Assembly: GCA_025929365.1 (NCBI GenBank)
Contig: JAICMG010000001.1
Location: forward strand, 1,214-65,213
DNA: 64,000 bases
Direction: 5' to 3'
DNA from: Frankiaceae bacterium
Lineage (GTDB): Bacteria > Actinomycetota > Actinomycetes > JAFAQI01
The notes beneath the pieces are model-generated. The model was not told where the DNA came from and did not search any database. It was given only the letters and a program-made list of their open reading frames with translations. Made by a program: the position numbers and the translations under genes. Positions 27,661 through 57,421 of this stretch are shown piece after piece; the stretch's first letter is position 1; every line of letters starts with the position of its first letter.

Positions 27661-29130
27661 GTGACCGCACCCGTAGCTCATCCAGATCGCTTCTTCATCG
27701 GCGGCGAGTGGGTGGCCCCCTCGTCGACGGCGACGATCGACGTGATCGACTCGCACAGCGAGGAGGTCTACTTCTCGGTCGCCGAGGCGCAGGCCGCCGA
27801 CATGGACCGCGCGATCGCGGCGGCCAGAGAGGCCTTCGACAACGGCCCGTGGCCGTTTCTCAGCCACAGCGAGCGCGCCGACTACCTCCGCGCGCTCGGC
27901 AAGGAGGTCGCCGCGCGCGCGGATGCGCTGGGCGACATCTGGCCGCGCGAGTCCGGAATCCTCGCGATCATGGCGAAGTACGCCGCGCCGGCGTTCGCCA
28001 CGGTCTTCGACTACTACGCGGACCTCGCCACCACGTTCGCGTGGGAAGAGCGGGCCCAGCCGACCGGCGGCGGCGCGTTCGGCCTCGTCGTTCGCGAGCC
28101 GGTCGGCGTGGTGGGCGCGATCATCCCGTGGAACGCGCCCATCCAGCTCGCGATCTACAAGATGGCGCCGGCGATGCTCGCCGGCTGCACCGTCGTGCTG
28201 AAGGCCTCACCCGAGGCACCCGGCGCGGCATACCTGCTCGCCGAAGCCGCCGAGGCAGCCGGCCTGCCGGCCGGCGTCTTCAACGTCTTGACCGCTGACC
28301 GCGAGGTCTCGGAGCGACTGGTCACCGATCTGCGGATCGACAAGATCGCCTTCACCGGCTCAACCGCGGCAGGTCGCCGGATCGCCTCGCTGTGCGGCGA
28401 GCGCATCGCGCGCTACACGCTCGAGCTCGGCGGCAAGTCCGCAGCCGTCATCCTCGACGACGCCGACCTCGCGCAGGCGGCGACGGCGATCTCCGGCTCG
28501 GAGTGCATGATCTCCGGGCAGGTGTGCTCATCGCTCACCCGCCTGGTGGTCCCCCGCAAGCGCCACGACGAGTTCGTCGAGGCACTCGCGAGCACGTTCT
28601 CGAAGGTGGTCGTCGGCGACCCGTTCGACGACGCGACCCAGATGGGCCCGCTCGCGATGGAGCGGCAGCGCGACAAGGTGCTCGGCCTGATCGAGCAGGG
28701 CAAGACCGAAGCGAAGCTCGTCACCGGCGGCGGGCGGCCGGCGCACCTCGAGCGCGGTTACTACGTCGAGCCCACCGTGTTCGCCAACGTCGACAACTCG
28801 GCCACGATCGCGCAGGAAGAGATCTTCGGCCCGGTCCTGTCGGTGATCCCGGCCGCGGATGAAGAGGACGCGATCCGGATCGCGAACGACACCATCTACG
28901 GACTCAACGCCTCGGTTTTCACACCCGACGCGGATCGCGCCCGAGCCGTCGCGGCACGACTGCGCTCCGGCACGGTCGGCCACAACGGCTTCCGCACCGA
29001 CTTCGGCATCGCCTTCGGCGGCTTCAAGCAATCCGGCATCGGCCGCGAGGGCGGCGTCGAGGGCCTGCTCCCCTACCTCGAGACCAAGACCGTCATCCTC
29101 GAGGGAACCCCGAGCGCCTACACGGACTGA
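27661..29130 (+). CDS. NAD(P)-dependent aldehyde dehydrogenase
   Basis: 489 aa. Contains the catalytic Cys (GQVCSS) and the motifs ELGGKSAAV and the Glu in the EEIFGPV region. GGAGG ribosome-binding site 9 nt upstream of the GTG. Confidence 0.93.
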   Translation: MTAPVAHPDRFFIGGEWVAPSSTATIDVIDSHSEEVYFSVAEAQAADMDRAIAAAREAFDNGPWPFLSHSERADYLRALGKEVAARADALGDIWPRESGILAIMAKYAAPAFATVFDYYADLATTFAWEERAQPTGGGAFGLVVREPVGVVGAIIPWNAPIQLAIYKMAPAMLAGCTVVLKASPEAPGAAYLLAEAAEAAGLPAGVFNVLTADREVSERLVTDLRIDKIAFTGSTAAGRRIASLCGERIARYTLELGGKSAAVILDDADLAQAATAISGSECMISGQVCSSLTRLVVPRKRHDEFVEALASTFSKVVVGDPFDDATQMGPLAMERQRDKVLGLIEQGKTEAKLVTGGGRPAHLERGYYVEPTVFANVDNSATIAQEEIFGPVLSVIPAADEEDAIRIANDTIYGLNASVFTPDADRARAVAARLRSGTVGHNGFRTDFGIAFGGFKQSGIGREGGVEGLLPYLETKTVILEGTPSAYTD

Positions 29131-29198
29131 GCGGGCGAGCCCAACCGCGCCGGCCGATCAGCCACCTCGGCTCGGGCGCGAGGCGCGATTCGGTGCCG

Positions 29199-29657
29199 TC
29201 ACAGGACGGTGACGGTGGCAGACCCGCTCGACGGCCAGCGGCCGGCATACGTGGTGGTGGGCGCGAGCAAGCCGCATTGCTGCGTCGCGGTCGCGACGTA
29301 GCGCACGACGCCTTGCCGCATCGCGGCCGCCGGAATGTGCAGCACCCCTGCTGACGCGACGGACTTGTTCGAAAGCTCACGGCTCGCCGAGTACCGGTGC
29401 CCACCGGCCCGCCACCAGGTAAGGGTGATCGTGAAGGGCGCGCACAGCAGCTGGTCGTAGGAGTTGTCGACGGCAATCTCCACATTCGCCCTCCGGCTCG
29501 GCGGCGACGCCGTCGGGCCGACCGCGACGACGGTCAGCGTGGAGTTGTCACCGGCCGGCGAAGCGGCGAAGGCCTGGCCTCCAGCGGATCCGCATGCCAG
29601 CACACTGAGTACGGTTGCGCCGGCCGCGACTCGGCGCCGGCTGCTAAATGTGACCAT
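29199..29657 (-). CDS. hypothetical lipoprotein
   Basis: Signal peptide with lipobox VLSVLACGS (from M8). No recognizable domain. Confidence 0.5.
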   Translation of the reverse strand: MVTFSSRRRVAAGATVLSVLACGSAGGQAFAASPAGDNSTLTVVAVGPTASPPSRRANVEIAVDNSYDQLLCAPFTITLTWWRAGGHRYSASRELSNKSVASAGVLHIPAAAMRQGVVRYVATATQQCGLLAPTTTYAGRWPSSGSATVTVL

Positions 29658-29725
29658 GGCCCCAGCGTCCGCAGCCAAGCGGCGACGAACATCGGTAGCG
29701 CTACCTATTTCGCGAGCTGCTGTAC

Positions 29726-32488
29726 CTACTTGCGACCCAACGCCGCGGCGACCAACTCGGGTCGCGAGCTCAGGCCGAGCTTGGCGTAGATGTGGGTCAG
29801 GTGCGCATCGACGGTTCGCCGCGAGATGAACAGCCGACCCGCGATGGCGGCATTCCCGAGGCCCTCCGCGGCGAGCTCAACAACGCGAACCTCGGTCGGA
29901 GTCAGGCTCGGCCATCCCGCCGCCGGGCGCTTGCGCCTCCCGGTGCGCCGAGCGACGTTCTTGACCGCTTCCTCGATCGGGGTGCCGGCTCCTTGCGCCC
30001 ACGAGGTCTCGTACGCCGCGGGGCCGAGCCGTTGCCGGGCGGTCTCGAGCGCGTTGTCGGGGGGATCGGTCCAGCAACCGGCGACACCGGCGGTCCGCCG
30101 GTGTCGCGCCGCGGCGCCCGCCAGCCATACGGCGAAGCCGTCGTCTTCGTCGGCGACGGCCAGGACGGCAAGTAGCTCGAGCGCGTCGGCCGAGACGCCG
30201 TACATCCCGGTTCGGGCGGCCAGCGCCAAGGCGTCGACGGCGAGGCGTTCGGCCTGCTGCGGATCGTGATCCGCGTGAGCGATGGCGGCCGCAACGACGA
30301 GTGCGATGTCGCTCGCGAGGACACTGTCCCGCCGTCGCGCCAGCTCAAGCCCGACCTCGGCCGTCCTCCGGGCCGTCGCGACGTCGCCGAGCCGCCACTG
30401 CGCGCGCGCCATGATGGCGTAACCGCGACGTTTCCACGCCGCCGATACCCAAGGCCCGAAGACGTCAGCGGTCTCGATGGCTTGTTCGGCCGCGGCCACG
30501 GCGGCGCTGAAATCTCCGTCCATGAGGAGCGCGACCCCGCGAAAGCTGTGACCCGCGGCCATTGCGAAGTTGCGGCCTTGGGGCACGATGACCTCCCCGG
30601 TGGCGCAGGCCGCAAGCCCGCCCCTGACATCGCCTCGCCCGAAACGCGCCAACGCCAGGCAGCCCCAGGCGTTGGCCTCCAGATAGCGGTTCCCGGTTCG
30701 CGCGGACATCGCCTGTCCGACCTCGGCATGCTCCAGTGCCGCATCGAGATCGCCGGCACTGAGCTCGACGAGTGCAAGGCAGTTCCGGGCCTGGCCCCCG
30801 ACCACCAGGTCACTCCGCTGCCCGGTCAGGTCGCGGACCCCCAGCAAGGTCGGCCGCGCCGCTGCCGGACCGTCGGCCGTCAGCTGGAACCAACCCAGCT
30901 GGCACAGACACACGTGAAGGATCGGTGTGTCGCGCGTCTCGCGGGCGATCTCAATCGCCGCCTCCAGCTTCGGCCGCCCCGCTTCGAGATCGAGCCCTCC
31001 GAGCGTGAGGCCGATGCGGGCCAGACACCGACCCTCGAGCCGACGGTCGCGGGAGGCGACGGCGAGCTCAAGCGCCTGCTCGGCGTGGTCGTAGGCGATG
31101 GCATAGTCGCCGTGCATCTCTTCGAGCCAGGACAGAGCGAACATCCCGGCTGCGACCGCGGCGGGGTTGCAACCCTCCGAGACCGAGTCCACGACACGTT
31201 GCGTGATCGCGCGGCCTTCGACGAATCGGGCCCGACTGGTCCAATAGCCCCAGAGTTCGCCGACCAGGCGCAGAGCGTCGTCGACTCGCCCGGCGGCGAG
31301 GGCCCAATCCACAGCGGCGTAGATGTTTTCGCGCTCAGTCTCCACCAAGGTCAGCGCCGCGACCTGGTCTTGTTCCGACAGCAGCCAGGCTTGACTGACC
31401 AACTCGAGGAAGTGGTCGAGGTGACGATGCCTGACCACCTCCAGCTCCCCTGAAGCGGCCAGCTCCTCCGCGGCGAACTGTCGGATCGTCTCGAGCATCC
31501 GGTACCGACTGCGCGACGACGTCGCATCGACGACGAGAAGGGAACGGTCCGCCAGGCGCGCGAGCACATCGAGCAGCCCCGCGTCCTCCAGTGGCTCGAA
31601 CGCCGCCACCGACTTCGCGGCGGCCAAGTCGCAGCCGGCGACGAATACCGAGAGCCGGCGCAACAACGCTCGCTCCGCATCAGTGAGCAGGTCGTAGCTC
31701 CACCGGACCGAGCCCAGCAGCGTCTGCTGCCGCGGGATCGCCGTCCTCGCGCCGTGGCCAAGGAGCCGAAATCGGTCGGAGAGGCCGGCCGCGATCTCCT
31801 GCGGTGACAACACACCGAGGCGTCCGGCTGCGAGCTCGATCGCCAGCGGGATCCCGTCCAGCCGCCGGGCAATCTCACGCACCGATGGCTCATTGTCATC
31901 GGTCAGCCGAAACTCGGGACGCACGGCCTGCGCTCTGTCGACGAACAGCTGGAGAGCATCCGGGACTTCCTGGCCCTCGAGGGATGCCACACCAAGCGAG
32001 GGAACTCGGTACGTGGTCTCGCCCTCAACGCCGAGTGGTTCTCGGCTCGTCGCGAGCACGACGAGGTCGTCACAGCTCTGCAACAGGTCATGGACTGTCG
32101 CGGCGACCGCATCAACGACCTGCTCACAGTTGTCGAGGATCATCAGCAGCTGGCGCCCCGACAGGTGGACGGCCAGCGCGCTGCGAAGCTCGGCCCCGGG
32201 CGTCTCCATCACGCCCAACGCCGTGGCGATGCTGCGATCGACGACGTCTGCGGCGGTAGCGGAAGACAGGTCGACGAAGCACGCACCGTCGCGCCACCGC
32301 TCGCCGGATTCCCTTGCGAACCGAGTCGCCAGCCGTGTCTTCCCGCAGCCACCGGAGCCCACGACGGTGACGATGCGCCGAGAGTCGAGCAAGCCACCGA
32401 GCTCGGACAGCTCGCGTTTCCTGCCGACGAACGAGGTGAGCTCGTTGGGCAGGCTCACGGCCAGGGGCGACAGCCGGTCAGCGGTCAC
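29726..32488 (-). CDS. large ATP-binding LuxR-family regulator (LAL / STAND NTPase-TPR-LuxR)
   Basis: 920 aa. N-terminal P-loop VTVVGSGGCGKTRLA (NB-ARC/AAA-like), central helical/TPR-like repeats, C-terminal LuxR HTH (…EVRVVELAAEGLGNAAIAGRLFISRRTVDAHLTHIYAKLG…). Confidence 0.85.
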   Translation of the reverse strand: MTADRLSPLAVSLPNELTSFVGRKRELSELGGLLDSRRIVTVVGSGGCGKTRLATRFARESGERWRDGACFVDLSSATAADVVDRSIATALGVMETPGAELRSALAVHLSGRQLLMILDNCEQVVDAVAATVHDLLQSCDDLVVLATSREPLGVEGETTYRVPSLGVASLEGQEVPDALQLFVDRAQAVRPEFRLTDDNEPSVREIARRLDGIPLAIELAAGRLGVLSPQEIAAGLSDRFRLLGHGARTAIPRQQTLLGSVRWSYDLLTDAERALLRRLSVFVAGCDLAAAKSVAAFEPLEDAGLLDVLARLADRSLLVVDATSSRSRYRMLETIRQFAAEELAASGELEVVRHRHLDHFLELVSQAWLLSEQDQVAALTLVETERENIYAAVDWALAAGRVDDALRLVGELWGYWTSRARFVEGRAITQRVVDSVSEGCNPAAVAAGMFALSWLEEMHGDYAIAYDHAEQALELAVASRDRRLEGRCLARIGLTLGGLDLEAGRPKLEAAIEIARETRDTPILHVCLCQLGWFQLTADGPAAARPTLLGVRDLTGQRSDLVVGGQARNCLALVELSAGDLDAALEHAEVGQAMSARTGNRYLEANAWGCLALARFGRGDVRGGLAACATGEVIVPQGRNFAMAAGHSFRGVALLMDGDFSAAVAAAEQAIETADVFGPWVSAAWKRRGYAIMARAQWRLGDVATARRTAEVGLELARRRDSVLASDIALVVAAAIAHADHDPQQAERLAVDALALAARTGMYGVSADALELLAVLAVADEDDGFAVWLAGAAARHRRTAGVAGCWTDPPDNALETARQRLGPAAYETSWAQGAGTPIEEAVKNVARRTGRRKRPAAGWPSLTPTEVRVVELAAEGLGNAAIAGRLFISRRTVDAHLTHIYAKLGLSSRPELVAAALGRK

Positions 32489-32536
32489 GCCCGTCAGTGT
32501 GCACGCTGCCCCGACCGCATGCCCGCTGCCGCCGCG

Positions 32537-35245
32537 TCAGTCCGCGGTGTCGTCGCGGTCGGCCGTGTCATCGGTGCTCGCGTCAGGTCCTGGTGGCGGC
32601 GGCTGCGAGCCCTCGCCGTGCACCGCGTGCCAGAGGATCGCGTCGAGCACTCGTTGCGGCATCTGGTCCGGCACGGAGAAGTCGAGCGCAGCCGAACGCG
32701 CCGCGTCCGGGCTCAGCGCGGTGTTGAGCGCCGACCGGCTCTGCGGCGGAACAATCGCCGTGTACGGCGCGAGGTTCACCGGACTCGGGCTGAACACGTC
32801 GTACATCGGCGTCGCCAGCCGGTCGAAGAGCCCCAGCGGCTTCATGCCGAGGATCAGCTCGATCGACCGGATCACCGACAGGAAGTCGTAGCGCGTGTGC
32901 ACGATCGCGCCGGCCGGCGCATACGGGCTGATCACCGCCGCCGGAATCCGGTGCGCGTCGACGTGGTCGGCGCCGTCCTGCGAGTCGTCCTCGATGACGA
33001 AGATGGCTGACGAGCGCCAGATCGAGGAATGCGAGATCAGGTCGACCATCTGGCCGAGTCCGTAGTCGTTGTCGGCGATCATGGCCTGCGGCGTCCGTTT
33101 GCCGGGCGTCGTACCCACCGTGTGGTCGTTGGCGAGCACGACGTAGTTGAACGCCGGCACGGTCCCGGTCGCCAGCTGCGCGTTGAACCGGGTCTGGAAG
33201 CAGTCGAAGCGCGACTCCGCGGTCGGCGAGGCCCCGGCCGGCGGCGTTGCGTCGTAGACCGGTTGTTTGGTCACCGCGTCGGTCTCGATGTCCGCGTCGT
33301 TCGGGTAGCACTGCCCGGCGGGTGTCGCCCCAACCCCGATCTTCGTGCCGGCACCCAGGTCGGAGTGGGCGAACTTCGCCGCCACCTCAGCGGTCATCGC
33401 GGCGGTGCGGTCCTTGTCGGTCAGCGGGACGACGCCGGCGATCGCCTCGCCGTAGTTGAAGTAGCTGATTCCCTGCTTCTGCGCCTGGTCGAACAGGAAC
33501 CCCGTCGATGGCCAGGTCACGGAGTACACACCGAAGTCGTACGGCCGACCGCGCGCCGCGTAGTTCTGATACCAGTTCTTCTGCACGTAGTCGGACACCG
33601 AGCCGGCACTCGTCCAGAAGTGCCCGTCGATCGAGGCTTCGCTGTCGGCGTAGACGTGGTCGACCAACGGGAAGCGGTTCACCAGCGCGTGGATGTTCGG
33701 CGTGACCGATGGCCCGAAGAGCTCGAGCTTCGGGTCGCTGTCGCCACGGCCGAGATCACCGAGGATCTGGTCGTAGGTGCGGTTCTCGCGGACGATGTAG
33801 AAGACGTGCTTGATCGGTCCGCCCGGTCGAAGCGGAGTGCCGGCCGGTGCGGCCTCGTGGTTGACGGGCCGCAGCGAAGCGTCGGCTCGGTGGGTGTCGC
33901 GCCGCAGCGCCGTCGCGCCGGGCCGGGCCAGCACCCCGACCGCTCCGTCGACGATCGACGGCAGATAGCTGAACGTGTTGATCGCGTTGTCGCTGTCGTC
34001 GGGGCTCAACGGGTCGGGACCATGGCGGTTGGGACCGACGCCACGGTTCTTGGCGGACAGGTACACGACTTTCGTCTTCGTCGTCGCGACGTCGGTCGGG
34101 AACTCGGCCGTGGGAATGCGGCCGATCAGCCGCAGCCCGGGCGCCCGGCGGGTGTGACCGAACACGGCGAGGTCGTCGGCGCCCTCCTCAGCCACGTACA
34201 GCCGGGTTCCGTCCGGTGTCATCGACAGCCCGACCGGCGACACTCCGAGCCCGGACCCGTGGTCGACCGACACGGACCCGACCATCGCAAGCTTGTTCGT
34301 GTCGAGGATCGCGACTTGGTCGGAGTTGGTGACGCTGACGTACGCCCGCGCCCGCTTCGGGTCAAGGACGATCGACTCCGGGTGCGAGAGGTCCGGCCCG
34401 ACGCGGATCGTCTTCGTGACGCGTGCCGACGCCAGGTCGATCACGGAGACCGTGCCGGCGGCTTCGTTCGACACGAGGCCCGTGCGGCCACCCCGAAGGA
34501 TCGCCGCGCCGTACGGGTAGTGACCGACCGCGACGTCCGTCACCGCGCCGCTATGGGTGTCGACAACTGCCGCGTGGTCAGCGAGATTGAGGGGGACGAG
34601 CAGTCGGCGCCCGTCCGGGGAGACCGCGAGCCGGTCGGGCCAGGCCAGCCGCTGCGTGTTGGTCGGCGGGAAGTTCTCCGGCGGACCTTCGAAGCCCGGG
34701 ACGTCCACGACGCCCTGCGGAATCGGTGAACCGGCAGGTGGGGGCACCGCGATCAGCCGCCGGAACGCGGCGTGGCCGGTCCGGCCGCTGTACCGGAACA
34801 CCCAGACGACGTCGCCTGAACGACCGGGCAGATGGGGCCGCTGCTGGTCGAGGTGCGCGGAGTCCGCGACGCCGGAGACATAGGCAAGGTGTGCCGTCGG
34901 ATCCATCGCGATCCCACCGGAGGCGCCAGGCATCGGCACGTTCTGGATCACCCGGCCGTCCCGCACCCGCACGATCCGGATGTCGTTGAAGCCGCGCCCG
35001 GTGTCGACGGCCCAGTAGAAGCGGCCATCCGGCGTCAACGCCCCGCCGGTCGGGAAGTTGCCCACCTTCGTCAGGCGACCGGCCGGGTGCAGCACCCGCC
35101 CGTCAGGAAGGACGCCCGCCTTGGGACCGATCACGCCGACCGAGCGCCCGGACACCCCAGCCATGGCGACGCCCGAGCCGACCAACGCGACGATCGCCAA
35201 CGCTCCGGCCCACGGTCGGAGAACTTGCATGCGTCTCAACCCCAT
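32537..35245 (-). CDS. secreted beta-propeller (YVTN/lactonase-type repeats) fused to a phosphoesterase (PLC/AcpA family) domain
   Basis: 902 aa. N-terminal signal peptide. Residues ~40-400 carry repeated …DGRRLYVA…/…AYVSVTNSDQVAILD… propeller blades. Residues ~470-850 carry phosphoesterase motifs (HVFYIVRENRTYDQILGDL, VVLANDHTVG, FVIEDDSQDGADHVDAHR). Confidence 0.8.
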   Translation of the reverse strand: MGLRRMQVLRPWAGALAIVALVGSGVAMAGVSGRSVGVIGPKAGVLPDGRVLHPAGRLTKVGNFPTGGALTPDGRFYWAVDTGRGFNDIRIVRVRDGRVIQNVPMPGASGGIAMDPTAHLAYVSGVADSAHLDQQRPHLPGRSGDVVWVFRYSGRTGHAAFRRLIAVPPPAGSPIPQGVVDVPGFEGPPENFPPTNTQRLAWPDRLAVSPDGRRLLVPLNLADHAAVVDTHSGAVTDVAVGHYPYGAAILRGGRTGLVSNEAAGTVSVIDLASARVTKTIRVGPDLSHPESIVLDPKRARAYVSVTNSDQVAILDTNKLAMVGSVSVDHGSGLGVSPVGLSMTPDGTRLYVAEEGADDLAVFGHTRRAPGLRLIGRIPTAEFPTDVATTKTKVVYLSAKNRGVGPNRHGPDPLSPDDSDNAINTFSYLPSIVDGAVGVLARPGATALRRDTHRADASLRPVNHEAAPAGTPLRPGGPIKHVFYIVRENRTYDQILGDLGRGDSDPKLELFGPSVTPNIHALVNRFPLVDHVYADSEASIDGHFWTSAGSVSDYVQKNWYQNYAARGRPYDFGVYSVTWPSTGFLFDQAQKQGISYFNYGEAIAGVVPLTDKDRTAAMTAEVAAKFAHSDLGAGTKIGVGATPAGQCYPNDADIETDAVTKQPVYDATPPAGASPTAESRFDCFQTRFNAQLATGTVPAFNYVVLANDHTVGTTPGKRTPQAMIADNDYGLGQMVDLISHSSIWRSSAIFVIEDDSQDGADHVDAHRIPAAVISPYAPAGAIVHTRYDFLSVIRSIELILGMKPLGLFDRLATPMYDVFSPSPVNLAPYTAIVPPQSRSALNTALSPDAARSAALDFSVPDQMPQRVLDAILWHAVHGEGSQPPPPGPDASTDDTADRDDTAD

Positions 35246-35247
35246 TG

Positions 35248-36072
35248 CTAGTGCCGAGGCACCATCGGTACCTCGGACGCGAGCGCCGTCACGGTCACGA
35301 TGCCAACCGGCCCCGCAGCATCGACCATCACTGCCGAGCCGACGGACACCCCGTCCGCCCCCTGGCGGTCGCTTGCCGCCATACCGATCATCGTCCCTCG
35401 CGGGAGCCGCGAGAGGAGCAGGGTCACATCGGAGTTCACGAACTGGAGGCCGTTGCTTCCCCAGTTGGTCAGCGGGTTGGCTACATCCGCGACCGCGGCC
35501 GCCCGGACGAACGGCGAGGTCTCCTCACCGTCGACGAGCTGGGCGTCGAAGTCGTACCAGACGTATTTCTCCTGGCTGGCATCCCGCCAGGGCTCGAAGT
35601 CACGCGCCGCCAACGCCCTGGATCCGACGTACGGCTTCGGTCCGAACGCCGGTGTCTCACCCGGCTCGGGCGGCGGCGGCATCTTCACCGCCCGGCCCCA
35701 TACGTCGCCCGAAGGCGGCTCGGATCGCCGCGTGAACACCCCTCGGCCATGGGCGACGTTTCGCCCGGCCTGGGTGATCGTCACGTCGACCAGGCGCAGC
35801 CGGCGTCCCTCCCGCAACACGGTCGCCTCGGTGCGGAGCTCGTCGAGCAACGCCATCCGCACCATGTCGACGGTCAACCGGGTGGCGAGGAAATCCGCGT
35901 CACCCGCGGCCTGCTCAGCGGCGTACCCCACGAGCCCCGAGACCACGAGTCCGCTGACGGTCGTCGGACCCCACGGCCCGACAGCCTGCGGCGTGGGCTT
36001 GAAGGTGTCCTCGTCGAGCCGCGTCAGGAAGGTACGGCGATCGGTCACCTGCACATCCTGCCGGTCGGCCAC
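35248..36072 (-). CDS. acyl-CoA thioesterase (TesB-like, double hotdog)
   Basis: 274 aa, consistent with acyl-CoA thioesterase II architecture. Lies 2 nt upstream of the phosphoesterase gene. Confidence 0.7.
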   Translation of the reverse strand: MADRQDVQVTDRRTFLTRLDEDTFKPTPQAVGPWGPTTVSGLVVSGLVGYAAEQAAGDADFLATRLTVDMVRMALLDELRTEATVLREGRRLRLVDVTITQAGRNVAHGRGVFTRRSEPPSGDVWGRAVKMPPPPEPGETPAFGPKPYVGSRALAARDFEPWRDASQEKYVWYDFDAQLVDGEETSPFVRAAAVADVANPLTNWGSNGLQFVNSDVTLLLSRLPRGTMIGMAASDRQGADGVSVGSAVMVDAAGPVGIVTVTALASEVPMVPRH

Positions 36073-36133
36073 CCCGCCCCGCCCACCCCGCCCTTAGGTG
36101 ACACGGGCGTCATAGAACATGCAATAGTGATTC

Positions 36134-37369
36134 GTGACTGAAGCGGATGCGACCCTCAACGCCGCGATCCCCGAGGCCGGCCTGGGCGAGCGGCAGGCCA
36201 CCGAGGACATGACGGCGCTCCTCGACTTCTCCTCGCCCCACTCCCGGTTCCGGAGCCTCACCGAGTCCGGCGGCTACCTCGTGCCGATGGAAGGCATGGC
36301 GATGCAGTTCGATCGCGAGTCGATCGAGTTCGTCCTGCACAATCCAGAGCTCTTCTCCTCGCGGATCGACCTCGGGCTGGGCAACGTCCGGCCGCTGATC
36401 CCGCTCAACGTCGACCCACCGCAGCACTCGAACTTCCGGCGGCTGCTCGATCCGTTGTTCTCGCCGAAGAAGATGACGGCGTATGAGCCGGACATCGCCC
36501 GACGCGCGAACACCCTCATCGACACCTTCATCGATAACGGCGGCTGCAACTTCTCCGACGACTTCGCCGATGTGCTCCCGAGCACCATCTTCCTGGACCT
36601 GACCGGCCTGCCGGAGGAGCGGCTCGACGAGTTCCTCCACCTGCGTGACGGCATCCTGCACCCGGAGAAGCACGACGAGCTCGCCGCCTTCGATCCCGAG
36701 GTACGCACTCGCGTGCTCTTCGGCACCGGCGAGAAGATCTACGCGCTGTTCACCGAGCTCATCAACGAACGCCGCAGGCAGCCGGGCGACGACGTCATCT
36801 CGCAGTTTCTCGCTGCCGAGGTCGACGGCGCCCGACTCACCCACGACGAGATCCTCGACATCCTGTTCCTGTTCCTGATCGCGGGCCTCGACACGGTCAG
36901 CGACACGCTCACCTGCATGTACGCGTTCCTCGCCCGCAACCCCGACCACCGCAAGCAGATCGTCAACGACCCGGACTGCCTCGACAACGCCGTCGAGGAG
37001 ATGCTGCGCTGGGAGGCACCGGTCCCGTTCTCCTCGCCGCGGTCGGCGACCCAGGACGTCACCCTTCCCAACGGCTGCCCGGTCACCGCCGGATCGATGG
37101 TGCTGTGTGCCTACGGCTCGGCCAACGTCGACCCCACGGAGTACCCGGACGCCCACGAGGTCCGCTTCGATCGCACCCGCAACCGCCACATCACCTTCGG
37201 GATGGGTCCCCACCGCTGCCTCGGGTCACACCTCGCCCGGCGGGAGCTGCGCGTCACCCTGCGGGAGTGGCACCGGCGCATTCCTGAGTACTGGCTGACT
37301 CCGGGCCACGAGGACCTCGTCTACCCGCCCGGCCTTCGGCACGTGAAGGACCTGATGCTCAGCTGGTGA
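36134..37369 (+). CDS. cytochrome P450
   Basis: Heme-binding loop FGMGPHRCLG, I-helix AGLDTVSD, ExxR motif (EEMLRW). Confidence 0.93.
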   Translation: MTEADATLNAAIPEAGLGERQATEDMTALLDFSSPHSRFRSLTESGGYLVPMEGMAMQFDRESIEFVLHNPELFSSRIDLGLGNVRPLIPLNVDPPQHSNFRRLLDPLFSPKKMTAYEPDIARRANTLIDTFIDNGGCNFSDDFADVLPSTIFLDLTGLPEERLDEFLHLRDGILHPEKHDELAAFDPEVRTRVLFGTGEKIYALFTELINERRRQPGDDVISQFLAAEVDGARLTHDEILDILFLFLIAGLDTVSDTLTCMYAFLARNPDHRKQIVNDPDCLDNAVEEMLRWEAPVPFSSPRSATQDVTLPNGCPVTAGSMVLCAYGSANVDPTEYPDAHEVRFDRTRNRHITFGMGPHRCLGSHLARRELRVTLREWHRRIPEYWLTPGHEDLVYPPGLRHVKDLMLSW

Positions 37370-37379
37370 GGCGCGAGCG

Positions 37380-38189
37380 TCATCCGCTGCGCTGGATCAG
37401 GTAGCCGACGTCACCCATGGCCACCAGCGGTCTGTGCACCGCGAGGATGCAGACATCGTCTGGCGCCTCCACCGGGTCGTGCGGGAGGCGGCGCAGCACC
37501 CGGTCGACCAGGCGCTCGAGCGCGGCCTGGCTCAACGCCGGCACATAGATCTCCTCGACGACTGCTCGTAGCCCCGCCATCTGGTCGCCGAGATCGAGGC
37601 CGGGCCGCTCGATCAAACCGTCGCTGTAAGCGAGGAGCAGCCCTCCCGGCGCGAGGCGCACCCGGTCGACCAGCACATGCCGATCGACGAACCCGCTGCC
37701 CAACGGCGGTGCGCTCGCGGCTGACAGCAGATGAGCAGGGTCGTCCACCCCCGCGAAGACCGGCGGCGGGTGGCCGGCGCTCGCGTACTCCAGCCAGTCG
37801 GTCCTGCGGTCGTGGATTCCGAGCCACAGCGTCGCGAGCTCCTCCGGGCCCCGACTGCACTGCAGCACGTCCAGCAGCCGAGCGATCTCGACGACCGAGA
37901 GCCCGTCCATCGCCAAGGCGCGGTTCTCGGCGCGGAGCACGTGCATGCGGCCGGCCGCCTCGACGCCATGACCGACGACATCACCGACCGCGATCAACGT
38001 CCGGTCCTCGTCCAGAGCGACTACGTCGAAGAAGTCTCCCGCGATCGGCTCGCCCCGCAGTCCCGACGGGAAGCAGCGGCCGGCTGTCGCCATCTCGGTC
38101 GAGCGGCGCGCAACCGCGAAACCGGAGGCGGGTTCTTCTACGTCGCGCGAGCTCGTCGCCACGATCGGCTCGCGAGCAGCATCAGCCAC
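37380..38189 (-). CDS. PP2C-family (PPM) serine/threonine phosphatase, RsbU/SpoIIE-like
   Basis: Motifs GDFFDVV, AVGDVVGHG, LLLAYSDGL and ILAV. GTG start at 38189 overlaps the stop of the upstream membrane ORF (GTGGCTGA). The 40 N-terminal residues of ORF 37380..38309 are out of character and not used. Confidence 0.82.
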   Translation of the reverse strand: MADAAREPIVATSSRDVEEPASGFAVARRSTEMATAGRCFPSGLRGEPIAGDFFDVVALDEDRTLIAVGDVVGHGVEAAGRMHVLRAENRALAMDGLSVVEIARLLDVLQCSRGPEELATLWLGIHDRRTDWLEYASAGHPPPVFAGVDDPAHLLSAASAPPLGSGFVDRHVLVDRVRLAPGGLLLAYSDGLIERPGLDLGDQMAGLRAVVEEIYVPALSQAALERLVDRVLRRLPHDPVEAPDDVCILAVHRPLVAMGDVGYLIQRSG

Positions 38190-38499
38190 CAATCGCCCCG
38201 GTGGTTCGTTGCCGTGTGCCCAAGGCGCTGTCCGTGAAGTCGACCCGGTCCAGCTCGAGCTGTTCAGCCTCGAAGCGGTCGCGCCGGCTGTTCGCGATGG
38301 AGAAGCCAAGCCCGAGCGCCATCACCACGACGGCGACGACCCAAAGGACGTGCCAGGCGAAACCGACGATGCCCATGACGAAAGCAATGCCGAGGACACT
38401 GGTCAGGACGACGTTCGGTGCCTTCTTCTGGCGGAGGGCTCGGGTCAGCCGGTCGTCGGACCCAGGATTCGAAACGTCGTGCCGCAATCTGGTTGTCAT
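38182..38499 (-). CDS. small two-TM membrane protein, translationally coupled to the PP2C phosphatase
   Basis: 105 aa. High GC3. Two hydrophobic helices (VVLTSVLGIAFVMGIVGFAWHVLWVVAVVVMALGLGF). Confidence 0.6.
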   Translation of the reverse strand: MTTRLRHDVSNPGSDDRLTRALRQKKAPNVVLTSVLGIAFVMGIVGFAWHVLWVVAVVVMALGLGFSIANSRRDRFEAEQLELDRVDFTDSALGTRQRTTGAIGG

Positions 38500-38701: not shown

Positions 38702-39400
38702 GTGCCCGACCCTGCCGATCCCGTCGACGCCGCGCCAGGCGTCGCTCAGGCGGAGCGGCTGTGCCGTGAAGCCATCAGCGCGGTCGACGTGGACGGCGCG
38801 GGGCTGTCGATGATGACCTCCGCAGGACACCGCGGAACGGTGTGCGCCACGGACGATGTTGCGCGCCGCGTGGAGGATCTGCAGTTCGCGCTTGGCGAAG
38901 GACCTTGCTTCGACGCGTTCACCGGCGGTGGCCCGGTGCTCATTGCGGACATGAACGTCGCGCTGGGCGCCGAAGGGGCGCGCTGGCCCGTCTTCACGGA
39001 GGCCGTCGCCGCGGCAGGGGTCGGCGCGCTGTTCGCCTTCCCGCTGCTGATCGGCGCCATCCCGCTCGGCGCACTCGATCTCTACCGCCGGCGGGCCGAA
39101 GGCCTTACTCCCGTCGAGCTGCGGGCCGCATGGCGGATCGCGGACGCCGCCGCAGACGCCTTGCTCGACGTGCGCTCCGGAACCGCGATGGACCTTCCTG
39201 CCGACGCTGCGCCCGCCGGCGCGTCGTACCGCCTCGAAGTCCACCAGGCCACCGGCATGGTGTCGGTGCAGCTCGGCGTGCCCATCGACGAGGCCTTCCT
39301 GCGGCTTCGCGCCTACGCCTACTCCCGAGAACGCAACATCGACGACGTCGCGCGCGACGTCGTCGCGGGGCGCCTACAGTTGTTGCCGGAAGAGGACTGA
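38702..39400 (+). CDS. GAF-ANTAR RNA-binding regulator (paralog 1)
   Basis: GAF-like N-terminal region (…FALGEGPCFDAFTGGGPVLIAD…) and C-terminal ANTAR helix set (…HQATGMVSVQLGVPIDEAFLRLRAYAYSRERNIDDVARDVV…). GTG at 38702. The upstream 330 codons of the track ORF are antisense junk. Confidence 0.82.
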   Translation: MPDPADPVDAAPGVAQAERLCREAISAVDVDGAGLSMMTSAGHRGTVCATDDVARRVEDLQFALGEGPCFDAFTGGGPVLIADMNVALGAEGARWPVFTEAVAAAGVGALFAFPLLIGAIPLGALDLYRRRAEGLTPVELRAAWRIADAAADALLDVRSGTAMDLPADAAPAGASYRLEVHQATGMVSVQLGVPIDEAFLRLRAYAYSRERNIDDVARDVVAGRLQLLPEED

Positions 39401-39402
39401 CC

Positions 39403-40173
39403 ATGACGGAACCACGCTCGGAAGCAACCCTCAGTGCAACGGCAGTCGCCCAGCAGGCGAGGCTGGCCGAGGTCTTCGTCGTCTTGGCCGACACCCTTGT
39501 CGCCGACTTCGACGTCGCGGGCTTGCTCGATCTGCTCGTCAGAACCTGCGTCGATGACCTCGGGGCGACAGCCGCCGGGCTCCTCCTCAGCGACCACCAG
39601 GGCGTGCTGCGCGTCGCGGCGTCGTCGAGTGAGGCGACCGCGTTGCTCGAGGCCTTTCAGATTCAGGCAGAGGAGGGCCCTTGCCTCGACGCCTTCCACA
39701 CGCGGCGGCCCGTCTCCGCGGACCTCACCGCCTCCGACAGCGCCTGGCCCACCTTCGCTCCGTTCGCGGTCTCGCACGGGATCAACCACGTCGACGCCCT
39801 GCCGATGCGGCTGCGCGACCAGTCGATCGGCGCGCTGAACCTGTTTCACGAGCATGATCTGACAACCATCGATCTTCGGGTTGCCCAGGCACTCGCGGAT
39901 GTCGCGACCATCGGAATCCTGCATCAGGAAGGGGCGCGTGCCGGCGACCTGATCATCGAACAGCTTCAGTCAGCGCTCAACAGCCGCGTCGTCATCGAAC
40001 AGGCCAAAGGCGTCCTCGCCGCGACCGGCCGAGTCGACATGGACACCGCGTTCCAGCAGCTGCGCAAATACTCCCGCGACAACAACGCAAAGCTGAGTGT
40101 GCTGGCCAGCCAGATCGCCAATCGCACGCTTGACCCTTCCGTCATCCTCCAGTGGCGGCAGCCGCCTGCCTGA
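39403..40173 (+). CDS. GAF-ANTAR RNA-binding regulator (paralog 2)
   Basis: ATG lies 2 nt after the paralog-1 stop. GAF-like region (…EEGPCLDAFHTRRPV…SIGALNLFHE…) and canonical ANTAR (…VVIEQAKGVLAATGRVDMDTAFQQLRKYSRDNNAKLSVLASQIA…). Confidence 0.85.
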   Translation: MTEPRSEATLSATAVAQQARLAEVFVVLADTLVADFDVAGLLDLLVRTCVDDLGATAAGLLLSDHQGVLRVAASSSEATALLEAFQIQAEEGPCLDAFHTRRPVSADLTASDSAWPTFAPFAVSHGINHVDALPMRLRDQSIGALNLFHEHDLTTIDLRVAQALADVATIGILHQEGARAGDLIIEQLQSALNSRVVIEQAKGVLAATGRVDMDTAFQQLRKYSRDNNAKLSVLASQIANRTLDPSVILQWRQPPA

Positions 40174-48804: not shown

Positions 48805-50112
48805 TCAGGACCCGAAGACCTGCTTCGTGTAGGCGTTGCCGAAGACGCGGCCCGGGTCGACGCGGTCACGCACCGACATCGCGTTGTCGAAATGCGGATA
48901 GCGCTGGCGGAGCGCATCCGCGTCCAGCCAGTGCAGCTTGCCCCAGTGCGGGCGCCCGTCAACCTCGGTCGCGATCGCCTCGACGGCCCGGAAGTAGGGC
49001 TCGAAGTCGACCCGGTGCCACTGATGGACCGCGAGGTACCCGCTTGCGCGACCAGACGCCGTCGACAGCCAGATGTCGTCCGCGGCCGCGACGCGCACCT
49101 CGACCGGGAAGGAGACGACGGCACCGCTTCGCTCGATCCACGACCGGACCTCGCGAAAGACGTCGACGAGGTTCTCCCGAGGGACGGCGTACTCCATCTC
49201 CCGGAATCGCACCCGGCGCGGCGACACGAACACGCGGTGCGAGACGTCCGTGAAGGTGCGCGCCGACAGCGCTCGCGCAGAGATGCGGTTGAAGCCGGGG
49301 ATCGCCGTTGGCCGCCGATAGGCGACGCGCTGGACGACCTCGAACACACCGTTCGACAGCAGCTCGTCATCGACCCATTCGCGCCAACCTGGCAGCCGCT
49401 TGCCGGCCTCACCGGGATTCGGGCGGTTGTTGCGTTTCGTCAGTGCGACGTCGGTGTGGGGAAACCAGTAGAACTCGAAGTGCTCGTTGCCGTCGGCGAG
49501 GTCGTCGAAGCTGTCGAGGACCTCGCCGAGCGGCATCGGCTGCTCGACCGCGGTGAGCTGGAACAGCGGATCACACTCGAGCGTCACCGCGGTCACGATC
49601 CCGAAGGCCCCGATCCCGACCCGGGCGGCCTGGAACAGCTCGGGGTCTGATTGCTCTGAGACCTCGGCGACCGAGCCATCGGCCAGCACGAGCTGCAGGC
49701 CCCGGACCTGCGTGGCGATCCCGCCGAGATTGGCGCCGGTGCCGTGCGTGCCGGTCGAGATCGCACCAGCGATCGTCTGGGCGTCGATGTCACCGAGGTT
49801 GCGCATCGACAGGCCGCGCGCTTCGAGCTCGGCGTTCAGGACGTGCAAGGGGGTGCCGGCTCCGACCGTGACGAGTGCCGTCGCCTCGTCGACCGACCGC
49901 ACGCCACTGAGGTGGTCGAGTCGGACCTGGATGTCGTCGGTCACCGCGGCGGCGGTGAAGCTGTGGCCCGCCCCGACAGCCTTCACGGTCCTTCCGTCGT
50001 CAACGGCGCGTTCAACGATGCGCGCGACGGCCTCGACGGTCACGGGCACGGCGACCTCGCGTGGCGTCGAGGACTGGTTGCGCCCCCAGTTGCGCCAGAC
50101 CTCGTGACCCAC
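48805..50112 (-). CDS. FAD-linked oxidase of the L-gulonolactone / D-arabinono-1,4-lactone oxidase family
   Basis: FAD-binding PCMH domain (…VKAVGAGHSFT…) and C-terminal ALO domain with GRPHWGK. GTG at 50112 is preceded by AGGAGGAG. The upstream ~315 codons of the track ORF are antisense to the divergent gene and not coding. Confidence 0.82.
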   Translation of the reverse strand: MGHEVWRNWGRNQSSTPREVAVPVTVEAVARIVERAVDDGRTVKAVGAGHSFTAAAVTDDIQVRLDHLSGVRSVDEATALVTVGAGTPLHVLNAELEARGLSMRNLGDIDAQTIAGAISTGTHGTGANLGGIATQVRGLQLVLADGSVAEVSEQSDPELFQAARVGIGAFGIVTAVTLECDPLFQLTAVEQPMPLGEVLDSFDDLADGNEHFEFYWFPHTDVALTKRNNRPNPGEAGKRLPGWREWVDDELLSNGVFEVVQRVAYRRPTAIPGFNRISARALSARTFTDVSHRVFVSPRRVRFREMEYAVPRENLVDVFREVRSWIERSGAVVSFPVEVRVAAADDIWLSTASGRASGYLAVHQWHRVDFEPYFRAVEAIATEVDGRPHWGKLHWLDADALRQRYPHFDNAMSVRDRVDPGRVFGNAYTKQVFGS

Positions 50113-50143
50113 CGGCGGCCTCCTCCTTCGATACGTTGCGCGG

Positions 50144-51148
50144 GTGCCGCTCGACGAGATCACCACTCCGGGCCTGATCGTCGACTCCGCCGCGCTCGAT
50201 CGCAACCTAGCGACGATGGCGGCGGCTTGGCCCGGCCGGACGCTGCGGCCGCACGTCAAAGCGCACAAGACGACCGGGATCGCGCGGCGCCAGGCCGCCC
50301 TGGGCCACACCGGCTTCACGTGCGCGACGATCCGCGAGGTGGAGGTCATGGCGGCCGCCGGCCTGGGAGAAGACCTCCTCCTCGCCAACGAGGTGGTGGA
50401 CATGCGACGGCTCGGTACGGTCGCCGCGTCCGGTGCTCGCGTGACGGTGGCCGTCGACTCGGAAGCGACCGTGGCCGCCGCCGTCAGCGGCGGCGTGCGC
50501 GAGGTGCTGATCGACGTGAACGTCGGCCTGCCGCGCTGTGGCTGCCCACCCGAACGGGCCGGCGGCCTGGCAGAGCAGGCGCGCGCCGCCGGCCTCGTCG
50601 TTCGCGGCGTCATGGGGTACGAGGGACATCTGATGCACGAGCCGGACGCCGAGCAGCGGCGCCGGCAAGCTGCCGAGTCGATGGCGCTGCTCGCCCGCGC
50701 CCACGCGGACGTCGGCGGGGACGTCGTATCCGGCGGCGGGACCGGCACGTGGACCGCGAACACCGGCGTGACCGAGCTGCAGGCGGGGTCGTACGCCCTC
50801 ATGGACACGACGTACCGCGGTTTGACCGACCTTCCGTTCGAACCGGCGCTGACCGTCCTCGCGACGGTCATCTCGGTCGGCGATGGCTGGGCCGTCGCCG
50901 ATGCCGGGCTGAAGGCCTTCGGCATGGACGAGGGCAATCCAAGGCTGCCCGGGTACCTGATCTGGTACTGCTCGGACGAGCACGTCGTCTTCTCCGCCGA
51001 GGACGGCCACGAGCTTCCCGCCGTCGGCGACCGGGTGCGCCTCGAGCCGGCACACATCGACCCGACCTGCGCACTTCACGAGCGGATGTACGTCGTCGAC
51101 GGCGACGCGATCGTCGAGGTATGGCCGATCGACATGCGCGGATGGTGA
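50144..51148 (+). CDS. alanine-racemase-N-domain / D-serine-dehydratase-like (DSD1/YhfX family) PLP enzyme
   Basis: Sequence includes …TLRPHVKAHKTTGIARRQ… (PLP-lysine context HVKAHK) and a C-terminal beta-domain. 334 aa. Confidence 0.75.
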   Translation: MPLDEITTPGLIVDSAALDRNLATMAAAWPGRTLRPHVKAHKTTGIARRQAALGHTGFTCATIREVEVMAAAGLGEDLLLANEVVDMRRLGTVAASGARVTVAVDSEATVAAAVSGGVREVLIDVNVGLPRCGCPPERAGGLAEQARAAGLVVRGVMGYEGHLMHEPDAEQRRRQAAESMALLARAHADVGGDVVSGGGTGTWTANTGVTELQAGSYALMDTTYRGLTDLPFEPALTVLATVISVGDGWAVADAGLKAFGMDEGNPRLPGYLIWYCSDEHVVFSAEDGHELPAVGDRVRLEPAHIDPTCALHERMYVVDGDAIVEVWPIDMRGW

Positions 51149-55927: not shown

Positions 55928-57421
55928 GTGACGGTGGATCGAAGAGCCCTGCTCAAGGGTGCTGCTGTCGCCTCCGGTGCCGTGCTGCTCGGTCAGCACG
56001 CCACCGGTACGGCGGCCGCCAAGCCATTCCTCAACTACGGCCCCATCTCGCGCGAAAAGACGGCGCGCATCGTCGGGCGATCCCCCGTCGAGCACGTCGT
56101 CGTCGTGATGATGGAGAACCGCAGCTTCGACCACTTCATGGGCTGGCTGCCCGGGGCCAACGGGATCGGCATCGACCCGGACGGCGCGGTCGTCGACCAT
56201 CGCCGATACGAGTCCTTCCGCTTCCGCGACCGGGCCGGGAAGAAGCACGGCATCTACCGCACCGAGGCGCTCAACGCCTGCGGCGAGGCCGACCAGGACC
56301 ACGGCTACTCGGGCGGCCGGATCCAGTGGAACAACGGCAAGATGAACGGCTTCGTGCTCGACCCCGAGAACACGACGTACTCACTCAGCTACTACGCATC
56401 GACAGCGCGGCAGTTCAGCAGCCCGCTCGCCATGAACTACACGACCTGCGACAACTACTTCTGCTCCTACCTCGGCCCGACCTGGCCGAACCGCTTCTTC
56501 CAGCACGCCGCGCAGACCGACCGGCAGAACAACGACGTGCATCCGGATGGATCCAAGCTGCCGGTCGAGCCATCCGCGACGGCCACGATCTGGGACCAGC
56601 TCAACCAGTCCGGCGGCCCGACCGGCCGCTACTACTTCAGCGACCTGCCGTTCCTCGGCCTGTGGGGGCCCAAGCACCTTCCCAACTCGGCGCCGTACGC
56701 GCAGTTCCTGGTCGACGCGGCGGCCGGCAACCTGCCCAACTTCAGCATGGTGGACCCTCGCTTCGAGGACGAAGGCAGCGGTACGTCGGGCGACGACCAT
56801 CCCCTCGCCGACCTTCGCGCGGGTGACGCCTTCCTCTCCGAGGTCGTGCACGCCGTCACGAACAGCCCGCAGTGGTCGACGACGCTGTTGGTCATCAACT
56901 ACGACGAGTGGGGCGGCTTCTTCGACCACGTCGCGCCGCCACGAGTGGCGCCGGGCAACCAGACGCTCGACACGCAGGACGTCATCCGGGATCGCAGGAC
57001 GGGCCGGATCACCAAGGTGCTCGCCGGCTTCCGGGTGCCGTGCATCCTCGTCTCGCCGTGGACGGCGGGCAGCCCGAACCGGCCACGGATCAGCTCCTAC
57101 GCCTACGACCACGCCTCCGTGTTGCGCTTCGCCGAGTGGAACTGGGGGCTGCACGCGATCACACCCCGCGACGCGTCCATCCCGTTCACCGGAGCGTCGA
57201 AGAAGTCGCTGACCAACTTGCGTTACGCCCTCGACTTCGCCAATCCGCGCACGAAGGTGCCCGACCTGAAAGAGCTGTCGCCGTTCGTCGCGACCGGCTG
57301 CGACCTTCCGGTCGGCCCGACCGGAGGCATCAGCGTCGGCGGCGACGCCGGCTCGGTCGAGTCCACCCGTACCGAGTGGGATGAACTGAAACAGTCAGGT
57401 CTCCTCGCGGGCTGGCTGTAG
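55928..57421 (+). CDS. Tat-secreted phospholipase C / phosphoesterase family protein
   Basis: Twin-arginine signal VDRRALLKGAAVASGAVLL. Phosphoesterase motifs VVVMMENRSFDHFMG, …NYTTCDNYFCSY…, …HPLADLRAGDAFLSEVV…. Strong GGGGAGGA ribosome-binding site before the GTG. Confidence 0.88.
   Translation: MTVDRRALLKGAAVASGAVLLGQHATGTAAAKPFLNYGPISREKTARIVGRSPVEHVVVVMMENRSFDHFMGWLPGANGIGIDPDGAVVDHRRYESFRFRDRAGKKHGIYRTEALNACGEADQDHGYSGGRIQWNNGKMNGFVLDPENTTYSLSYYASTARQFSSPLAMNYTTCDNYFCSYLGPTWPNRFFQHAAQTDRQNNDVHPDGSKLPVEPSATATIWDQLNQSGGPTGRYYFSDLPFLGLWGPKHLPNSAPYAQFLVDAAAGNLPNFSMVDPRFEDEGSGTSGDDHPLADLRAGDAFLSEVVHAVTNSPQWSTTLLVINYDEWGGFFDHVAPPRVAPGNQTLDTQDVIRDRRTGRITKVLAGFRVPCILVSPWTAGSPNRPRISSYAYDHASVLRFAEWNWGLHAITPRDASIPFTGASKKSLTNLRYALDFANPRTKVPDLKELSPFVATGCDLPVGPTGGISVGGDAGSVESTRTEWDELKQSGLLAGWL

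Follow-up and report, generated by a model that had tools for sequence, protein, structure and literature searches.

Does a long secreted phosphoesterase encoded in the genome of a Frankiaceae bacterium work together with the large ATPase-type regulator whose gene lies next to it? The question arises from a stretch of 64,000 nucleotides (assembly GCA_025929365.1, contig JAICMG010000001.1, positions 1,214 to 65,213; called the window below). A sequence-only reading had joined two of its open reading frames (ORFs) into one locus: a 902-aa protein carrying a beta-propeller and a phosphoesterase domain, referred to here as the fusion, and a 920-aa regulator with an ATPase core of the STAND type (signal transduction ATPases with numerous domains) and a C-terminal LuxR helix-turn-helix (HTH) domain. 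Together with neighbouring genes, these had been taken for a lipid or phospholipid scavenging locus, perhaps responsive to phosphate or host lipid. Our analysis favours a different picture, to which we give a probability of roughly 60%: the fusion would be an exported, catalytically competent two-domain phosphoesterase from a large soil-Actinomycetota family, with an accessory propeller, and the regulator would not be linked to it.

Both ORFs are on the minus strand, the fusion at 32537..35245 as a complete ORF with its translation and the regulator at 29726..32488, in DNA which has a GC content of 66–71% throughout the window. Their codon-position GC is typical of high-GC genes, with a GC content at third positions (GC3) of 0.82 and 0.85. 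In the direction of transcription, the thioesterase gene (36072-35248) is followed after a 2-nt gap by the fusion (35245-32537) and then, after a 48-nt gap, by the regulator (32488-29726). The regulator had been described as upstream; on the coding strand it is downstream, and the gene directly upstream of the fusion is that of the thioesterase, with 2 nt from its stop codon to the ATG of the fusion. The NCBI annotation starts the fusion at M6, which results in a protein of 897 aa.

The combination of a propeller with a PF04185 phosphoesterase domain, proposed by the sequence-only reading, was borne out by Pfam and TIGR scores above the respective cut-offs. Residues 1–29 (MGLRRMQVLRPWAGALAIVALVGSGVAMA; 35159..35245) can be read directly as a signal peptide ending in AMA. 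N-termini were read for 31 aligned homologues, and every one of these has a hydrophobic leader; a motif of the twin-arginine translocation (Tat) type, [ST]RRxhh, occurs in only nine of the 120 listed homologues. Both observations point to export that is probably of the Sec type. Residues ~40–400 (34046..35128) form a seven-bladed propeller of the YVTN/YncE type, detected by hidden Markov models (HMMs), by sequence match to the PDB and by Foldseek. The TIGR02276 YVTN repeat scores 51.1 bits (cut-off 27.85) and the PF10282 Lactonase propeller 23.2 bits (cut-off 21.7). The PDB match by sequence is 1l0q (E = 1e-29), which Foldseek also finds (E = 5e-20) along with the YncE structures 7seu and 3vgz, for which the template modelling (TM) score, taken on the target, is 0.81–0.83. 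The predicted local distance difference test (pLDDT) value of this region is mostly above 90 in the predicted structure. The fusion misses the threshold of the YncE equivalog NF052280 (26.5 bits, cut-off 400).

An inter-domain linker with a helical segment, residues 401–470 (33836..34045), was delimited from the AlphaFold2 (AF2) model and the family alignment. It has lower pLDDT values (57–96) and no position with at least 90% conservation among 123 family representatives. Residues 471–885 (32591..33835) are assigned to a divergent PF04185 domain, similar to AcpA and phospholipases C (PLCs), from the alkaline-phosphatase superfamily. The PF04185 score is 39.9 bits (cut-off 23; E = 3.9e-10) for residues 508–800. 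Within the alkaline-phosphatase superfamily, the fold is closest to solved PF04185 structures. In our structure-comparison table, whose figures are unlabelled, RePLC (8k3g) has 20.1, AcpA (2d1g) 19.2, NPC4 (8hav) 18.9, a glycerophosphoethanolamine phosphodiesterase (8yk5) 18.6 and PlcH (9gye) 18.1, while a phosphonate monoester hydrolase, sulfatases and nucleotide pyrophosphatases/phosphodiesterases (NPPs) reach at most 17.8.

This architecture, which had been called unusual, turned out to be common. A word-indexed protein search yielded more than 2,690 near-full-length homologues. The best 120 mostly have a query coverage of 92–100% with 51–84% identity, and one of the homologues listed bears the NCBI name ‘bifunctional YncE family protein/alkaline phosphatase family protein’. 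When one genome was scanned for each species, at least 555 genomes turned out to encode the fusion. The best 80 loci come nearly all from soil or freshwater Actinomycetota and include Solirubrobacterales, Thermoleophilia, Frankiaceae, Mycobacteriales and Acidimicrobiales. When the catalytic domain alone was searched against 1.84 billion cluster representatives, 4,703 matches were obtained, 918 of them at E ≤ 1e-30. A Pfam scan of eight long representatives detected propeller and PF04185 in all eight. With HMMs of the two halves, both domains were found in 123 of the 150 best representatives of 50%-identity clusters, the propeller coming first in 122 of the 123; the remaining 27 are mostly short and perhaps fragments.

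An assembly or frameshift artefact joining two genes, the outcome that would have undone the idea of a fusion, is excluded for practical purposes. Thousands of independently assembled homologues share the architecture, and several of the best 80 loci are on contigs of 0.5–2.5 Mb. Codon-position GC is uniform along an uninterrupted reading frame, and the protein is present in identical form on two contigs: as an 897-aa protein (P0001) in GenBank, on a contig of the metagenome-assembled genome (MAG) GCA_025980775.1, and on another contig, 78 kb long. Among named relatives, those closest to it come from ‘Mycobacteriales bacterium’ MAGs. The fusion is a single genuine gene, built in the way that is usual in a very large family.

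The question of whether the phosphoesterase domain could be active was addressed by motif comparison with AcpA and by counting residue conservation over 150 representatives, which are 40–65% identical in the catalytic domain. The predicted metal ligands E487 and N488 (33782..33787), in the motif RENRTYD, align with the IFQENNSFD block of AcpA and are kept in 144 of 144 aligned representatives. The segment containing them, IKHVFYIVRENRTYD, comprises the N-terminal strand and the ENRSFD-type metal-ligand motif and was aligned to IKHVVIIFQENNSFD of AcpA. The block EDDSQDGADHVD (residues 752–763; 32957..32992) would provide a second set of metal and phosphate ligands. It resembles the DExxGxxDHV motif of PLCs and non-specific phospholipases C (NPCs), aligns with YDDSDGDYDHV of AcpA and is invariant in alignments of 31 and 44 sequences. 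The fusion carries EDDSQDGADHV and AHRIPAAVISPY, which correspond to the C-terminal DExxGxxDHV and GxRVP motifs of PF04185. D753, D754 and D760 are each conserved in 143 of 145 representatives, H761 in 141 of 145 and R766 in 144 of 145. When the family profile was compared with AcpA, IKHVFYIVRENRTYD and VVEDDSQDGADHV...RIPAxVISPY were matched to its metal-ligand blocks (E = 4.5e-10).

The candidate nucleophile is S538 (33632..33634) in the motif SIDGH, proposed from conservation and position. Ser or Thr is found here in 145 of 146 aligned representatives, and by analogy the residue seems to follow a TPN-helix-strand element, as nucleophiles do in AcpA, PLCs, NPPs and sulfatases. Conservation of the metal ligands and of this Ser suggests that the fused phosphoesterase is probably an active enzyme; its activity and its substrate we infer from sequence.

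A different residue, C646, was also considered as nucleophile of a Cys or formylglycine type. It emerged from an hhalign comparison of the fusion family with the free-PLC family, in which the TxPNR motif of PLCs was paired with C646-YPND. The pairing was rejected because C646 is present in only 29 and C682 in only nine of the 150 diverse representatives, whereas all but one of 146 have Ser or Thr at position 538. Both cysteines are invariant among homologues with at least 59% identity to the fusion (alignment A1). C646 is specific to one clade, and may form a disulfide bond with C682.

The propeller is conserved to a far lesser degree. Only seven of its positions show at least 90% conservation, compared with 46 in the catalytic domain, and all seven, located in the last blades, are Gly, Pro or Tyr. 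The label ‘bifunctional’ might hint at a further active site in the propeller; this was rejected because so few positions are conserved, and only of this kind. Given its weak conservation, the propeller reads as an accessory module for targeting or scaffolding and not as a second enzyme. Two family members have extra modules: in P0356 (1708 aa) the propeller and PF04185 are preceded by a type I phosphodiesterase/NPP domain (PF01663), and P0326 (1125 aa) has a CBM9-like carbohydrate-binding domain. Such modules would fit extracellular action on polymeric substrates.

The regulator was found to have the predicted order of a P-loop NTPase, a long helical region and a C-terminal LuxR domain. The Walker A motif is GSGGCGKT at residue 44 and Walker B is LLMILD. 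Pfam matches above cut-off were obtained for AAA_22 (43.6 bits), NB-ARC (29.5 bits, cut-off 23.5) and the GerE/LuxR HTH (PF00196, 57.7 bits, residues 861–914); the PDB matches are the HTH domains of NarL, DevR and GerE. In the helical region, the tetratricopeptide repeat model TPR_12 reaches 21.3 bits, under its cut-off of 30.1, and homologues are annotated with PF17874, PF13424 and PF25872.

The nearest non-self homologues of the regulator are only 36–45% identical. Most of them are about 1,100 aa long and have an extra class III adenylate cyclase domain at the N-terminus, an arrangement of cyclase, ATPase and LuxR domain which we take to be that of the mycobacterial proteins Rv0386, Rv1358 and Rv2488c. 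The regulator begins directly at the NTPase (LTSFVGRKREL), 48 nt past the preceding gene. It either represents a cyclase-less subtype or has lost the cyclase domain.

Two more specific assignments were examined and dismissed. As an orthologue of MalT, the regulator reaches 38.1 bits with NF003420 (cut-off 537), and the match comprises the HTH only. As an anti-phage STAND protein similar to Avs, it has no match to the Avs/STAND models of PADLOC, and it ends in a DNA-binding HTH instead of an effector. The only PADLOC matches of the regulator are one of the HTH region to CARF models and a weak one to mad8 (E = 0.002); no defence-system match in PADLOC was obtained for either the fusion or the regulator. 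The preference for a transcriptional switch over an Avs-like protein, already expressed in the sequence-only reading, is thereby upheld, and the regulator appears to be an ordinary member of the much-expanded actinobacterial family of ATPase-LuxR paralogues of the type of large ATP-binding regulators of the LuxR family (LAL).

To find out whether the two genes belong together, we compared the neighbours in the window with 86 fetched fusion loci by tblastn. The regulator is beside the fusion in one of the 86 loci, that of the window's own species and contig, and absent from the other 85. The thioesterase and the orthologous P450 were found only in the closest relatives. A relative with 84% identity has kept the cytochrome P450, thioesterase and fusion genes, followed by a convergent S15 peptidase gene and then by the same aldehyde dehydrogenase gene as in the window, with no regulator. 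In a relative with 80% identity, the P450, thioesterase and fusion genes are again kept and four other genes are located in the slot of the regulator. Relatives with 70% identity or less have an entirely different neighbourhood, and adjacency of thioesterase and fusion is kept only at 80–84% identity. What lies between the fusion and the aldehyde dehydrogenase gene is variable, and in this lineage the slot is taken by the regulator. There is no evidence for the fusion and the regulator working together, and their adjacency is lineage-specific.

A small ORF at 29199-29678 (minus strand) is located between the regulator and the aldehyde dehydrogenase gene. Read from an internal Met, its sequence MVTFSSRRRVAAGATVLSVLACGS resembles the leader of a lipoprotein, with L-A-C as lipobox. 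The GenBank product is only 94 aa long, there is no Pfam match, and the ORF was not retained by a GC3 filter.

Several points count against the picture of an active phosphoesterase with an unrelated regulator. Four of them concern catalysis. The S538 block was not aligned to the AcpA/PLC nucleophile by either HMMER or hhalign, the S538 loop is modelled at a pLDDT below 50, the PF04185 match on the fusion covers only profile positions 100–354, and we did not find a published assay of any member of the propeller-phosphoesterase family in the literature. Searches for the fusion led only to papers in which the two kinds of domain belong to different proteins. The weak Pfam score (39.9 bits), the partial profile coverage and the low confidence of the modelled active-site loops would also agree with a non-catalytic binding or structural exoprotein, in which a degenerate phosphoesterase domain serves as a ligand-binding scaffold. 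We consider this very unlikely: hardly any variation is seen in any of the predicted metal ligands or in the Ser among clusters that are only 40–65% identical, a pattern that fits purifying selection on catalysis.

The other two points concern transcription. With a gap of 48 nt and a shared strand, fusion and regulator may be co-transcribed, and a consensus scan detected no terminator-like site between the two genes. Regulators are often encoded beside their targets. The STAND-LuxR protein might therefore be conceived as a dedicated switch of a thioesterase-phosphoesterase operon, perhaps also of the divergent P450 gene, in a scavenging module that responds to phosphate or lipid. The close spacing on one strand without a terminator-like site speaks for such a switch, which we nevertheless regard as unlikely in view of the 85 fusion loci that lack the pairing and of the relatives at 84% and 80% identity that keep the P450, thioesterase and fusion without it. 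Moreover, the nearest homologues of the regulator reach 45% identity at most, so that a conserved orthologue paired with the fusion is lacking.

Regulatory sites were in line with this. A promoter and terminator consensus scan of 29000-37500 revealed nothing above chance. Inverted repeats in the intergenic regions are short and imperfect, and those in the promoter region 36073-36133, where a search for LuxR-type repeats had been suggested, are at chance level only. No PHO box of the Streptomyces type was found near either phosphoesterase gene. The scan of the window gave two matches, both far from these genes; 0.69 are expected by chance, and 16% of shuffled sequences reach two.

The sequence-only reading had also named a second phosphoesterase with a Tat signal as a paralogue of the fusion about 20 kb away. 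The gene is indeed present at 55928..57421 on the plus strand and encodes a free-standing 497-aa protein with a PF04185 score of 233.5 bits over profile positions 1–355, which is the full profile. Its motifs DRRALLK (Tat), ENRSFDH, TWPNR, DEWGGFFDHV and GFRVP were read directly. In the PDB search, NPC4 (8hav) was matched with 2e-32 and a bacterial PLC (9gy2) with 1.8e-31. By these criteria the free PLC can be classified as a canonical enzyme of the PLC/NPC type. The designation as paralogue was not sustained: the free PLC and the fused domain are 21% identical over 154 aa (E = 0.001) and are remote relatives within the superfamily rather than recent paralogues.

The free PLC had been described as lying beside secreted esterases. 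Hydrolase genes do adjoin it, although an obvious signal peptide is present in only one of the three. In the segment 54326-57421 (plus strand), the gene of an exported S15/alpha-beta hydrolase (leader MRPRRSLGLLTAALAAAAALTPAVAGA) precedes that of the Tat-signal PLC, with 60 nt between the two on one strand, and the proteins may constitute a pair of secreted hydrolases. Among the 86 fusion loci, three have a free PF04185-like gene directly beside the fusion on the same strand (L006:6001-10013, L040:7875-11929 and L072:1717-5883), with a 4-nt overlap of stop and start in L006. One further locus (L008:7875-13165) has two full fusion genes in tandem. These arrangements are weakly consistent with a shared role in phosphoester scavenging.

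A role in lipid metabolism was suggested by the neighbouring genes. The thioesterase (35248..36072, minus strand) is a TesB-like acyl-CoA thioesterase of 274 aa with matches to PF13622 and PF20789, and the P450 gene (36134-37369) is divergent from it. The list of lipid genes nearby was correct for the thioesterase, the P450 and the acyl-CoA (AMP-binding) ligase, which is 12 kb off; of the several desaturases named, only one fatty-acid desaturase was found, along with its reductase. These genes would be the companions of the fusion if it were a phospholipase C that acts on membrane or host phospholipids and takes part in lipid remodelling with the thioesterase, P450, desaturase and acyl-CoA ligase. 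Such a function is unlikely. A lipid- or phosphate-responsive locus in general is not supported either: synteny of thioesterase, P450 and fusion is confined to relatives with at least 80% identity, and the window is a mixed chromosomal, otherwise housekeeping region. Its further genes encode KatG, arginyl-tRNA synthetase, a glycogen-debranching-like enzyme, a GT4 glycosyltransferase, GAF-ANTAR regulators and a PP2C phosphatase.

Two other parts of the window deserve mention. Just past the P450 gene, at 37380-38309 (minus strand) and 38702-40173 (plus strand), there are two tandem GAF-ANTAR regulators of the RNA-binding antiterminator type beside a SpoIIE/PP2C phosphatase; these annotations were taken from the identical GenBank contig. 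At 48805-51057 (minus strand) a 750-aa protein is encoded in which the domains FAD_binding_4 and ALO (D-arabinono-1,4-lactone oxidase) are confined to residues 333–746. The first ~330 residues are without Pfam match, and the start of this ORF is provisional.

If the fusion is an exported and active phosphoesterase, its mode of action can be outlined as follows. The C-terminal domain of the AcpA/PLC branch would most likely act outside the cell, as hydrolase of an organic phosphate monoester or diester. Catalysis would employ a single metal site made up of E487, N488, D753 and D754, with D760 and H761 nearby, and, as proposed for AcpA-like enzymes, Ser538 would be covalently phosphorylated as an intermediate. 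The propeller, which diverges rapidly, would not act as a second catalytic site; its most likely role is to place the enzyme on the cell envelope or on a substrate that is bulky or insoluble. The downstream STAND-LuxR gene would have no part in this, occupying a variable slot in one lineage.

The locus itself matters little, being one more copy of an abundant and already named family beside an unrelated regulator. The family is worth biochemical attention: it is widespread (Solirubrobacterales, Thermoleophilia, Frankiales, Mycobacteriales), its AcpA-like site is apparently intact, and it is almost always fused to a propeller. Surveys of phosphorus-cycling genes in soil usually count phoA, phoD, phoX, acid phosphatases of classes A–C and phytases, and could be missing the propeller-phosphoesterase family. 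As a tentative idea, the family may represent major unrecognised secreted hydrolases of organic phosphorus, in which the propeller steers an AcpA-like Ser/metal site to a polymeric or insoluble substrate. Candidates would be extracellular DNA, teichoic acid and membrane debris, and the result would be a substrate specificity without precedent among AcpA or PLC enzymes that stand alone. It is less likely that the STAND-LuxR protein, acquired in this lineage, puts the fusion under a new ligand-dependent control.

A comparison with known proteins places both genes among established types. The regulator has the same order of NTPase, long helical region (putatively of repeats) and C-terminal LuxR/GerE HTH as the LAL regulators, for which MalT is the prototype, and as the mycobacterial cyclase-ATPase-LuxR proteins, from which it differs by the missing class III adenylate cyclase domain. 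For the catalytic half of the fusion, AcpA of Francisella tularensis (PDB 2d1g) is ~20% identical. AcpA has no propeller, and the surroundings of the nucleophile, predicted to be the Ser of SIDGH in the fusion and Ser175 in AcpA, differ. The PF04185 PLCs, that is plant NPC4 (8hav), RePLC from Rasamsonia (8k3g), PlcH from Pseudomonas (9gye) and the free PLC of the window, have a TxPNR nucleophile motif which is missing in the fusion; the fusion, in turn, has a Sec-like leader instead of a Tat signal and the extra N-terminal propeller. The fused domain is best described as a divergent AcpA-like branch within PF04185.

The propeller resembles those of E. coli YncE (3vgz) and the S-layer protein of Methanosarcina (1l0q), which are likewise seven-bladed and built from YVTN repeats. 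These are stand-alone proteins or PKD-linked surface proteins with 12–22% identity to the propeller of the fusion, and binding of single-stranded DNA is a feature of YncE. Closest of all is the NCBI family ‘bifunctional YncE family protein/alkaline phosphatase family protein’, in which ‘bifunctional’ is a domain-based label. The propeller has no conserved polar site. Members of the family have the same domain order, a signal peptide and a length of ~870–970 aa, share 50–84% identity with the fusion along almost the entire protein and show no architectural difference from it. By sequence, the fusion is assigned to this already-named family as a further member.

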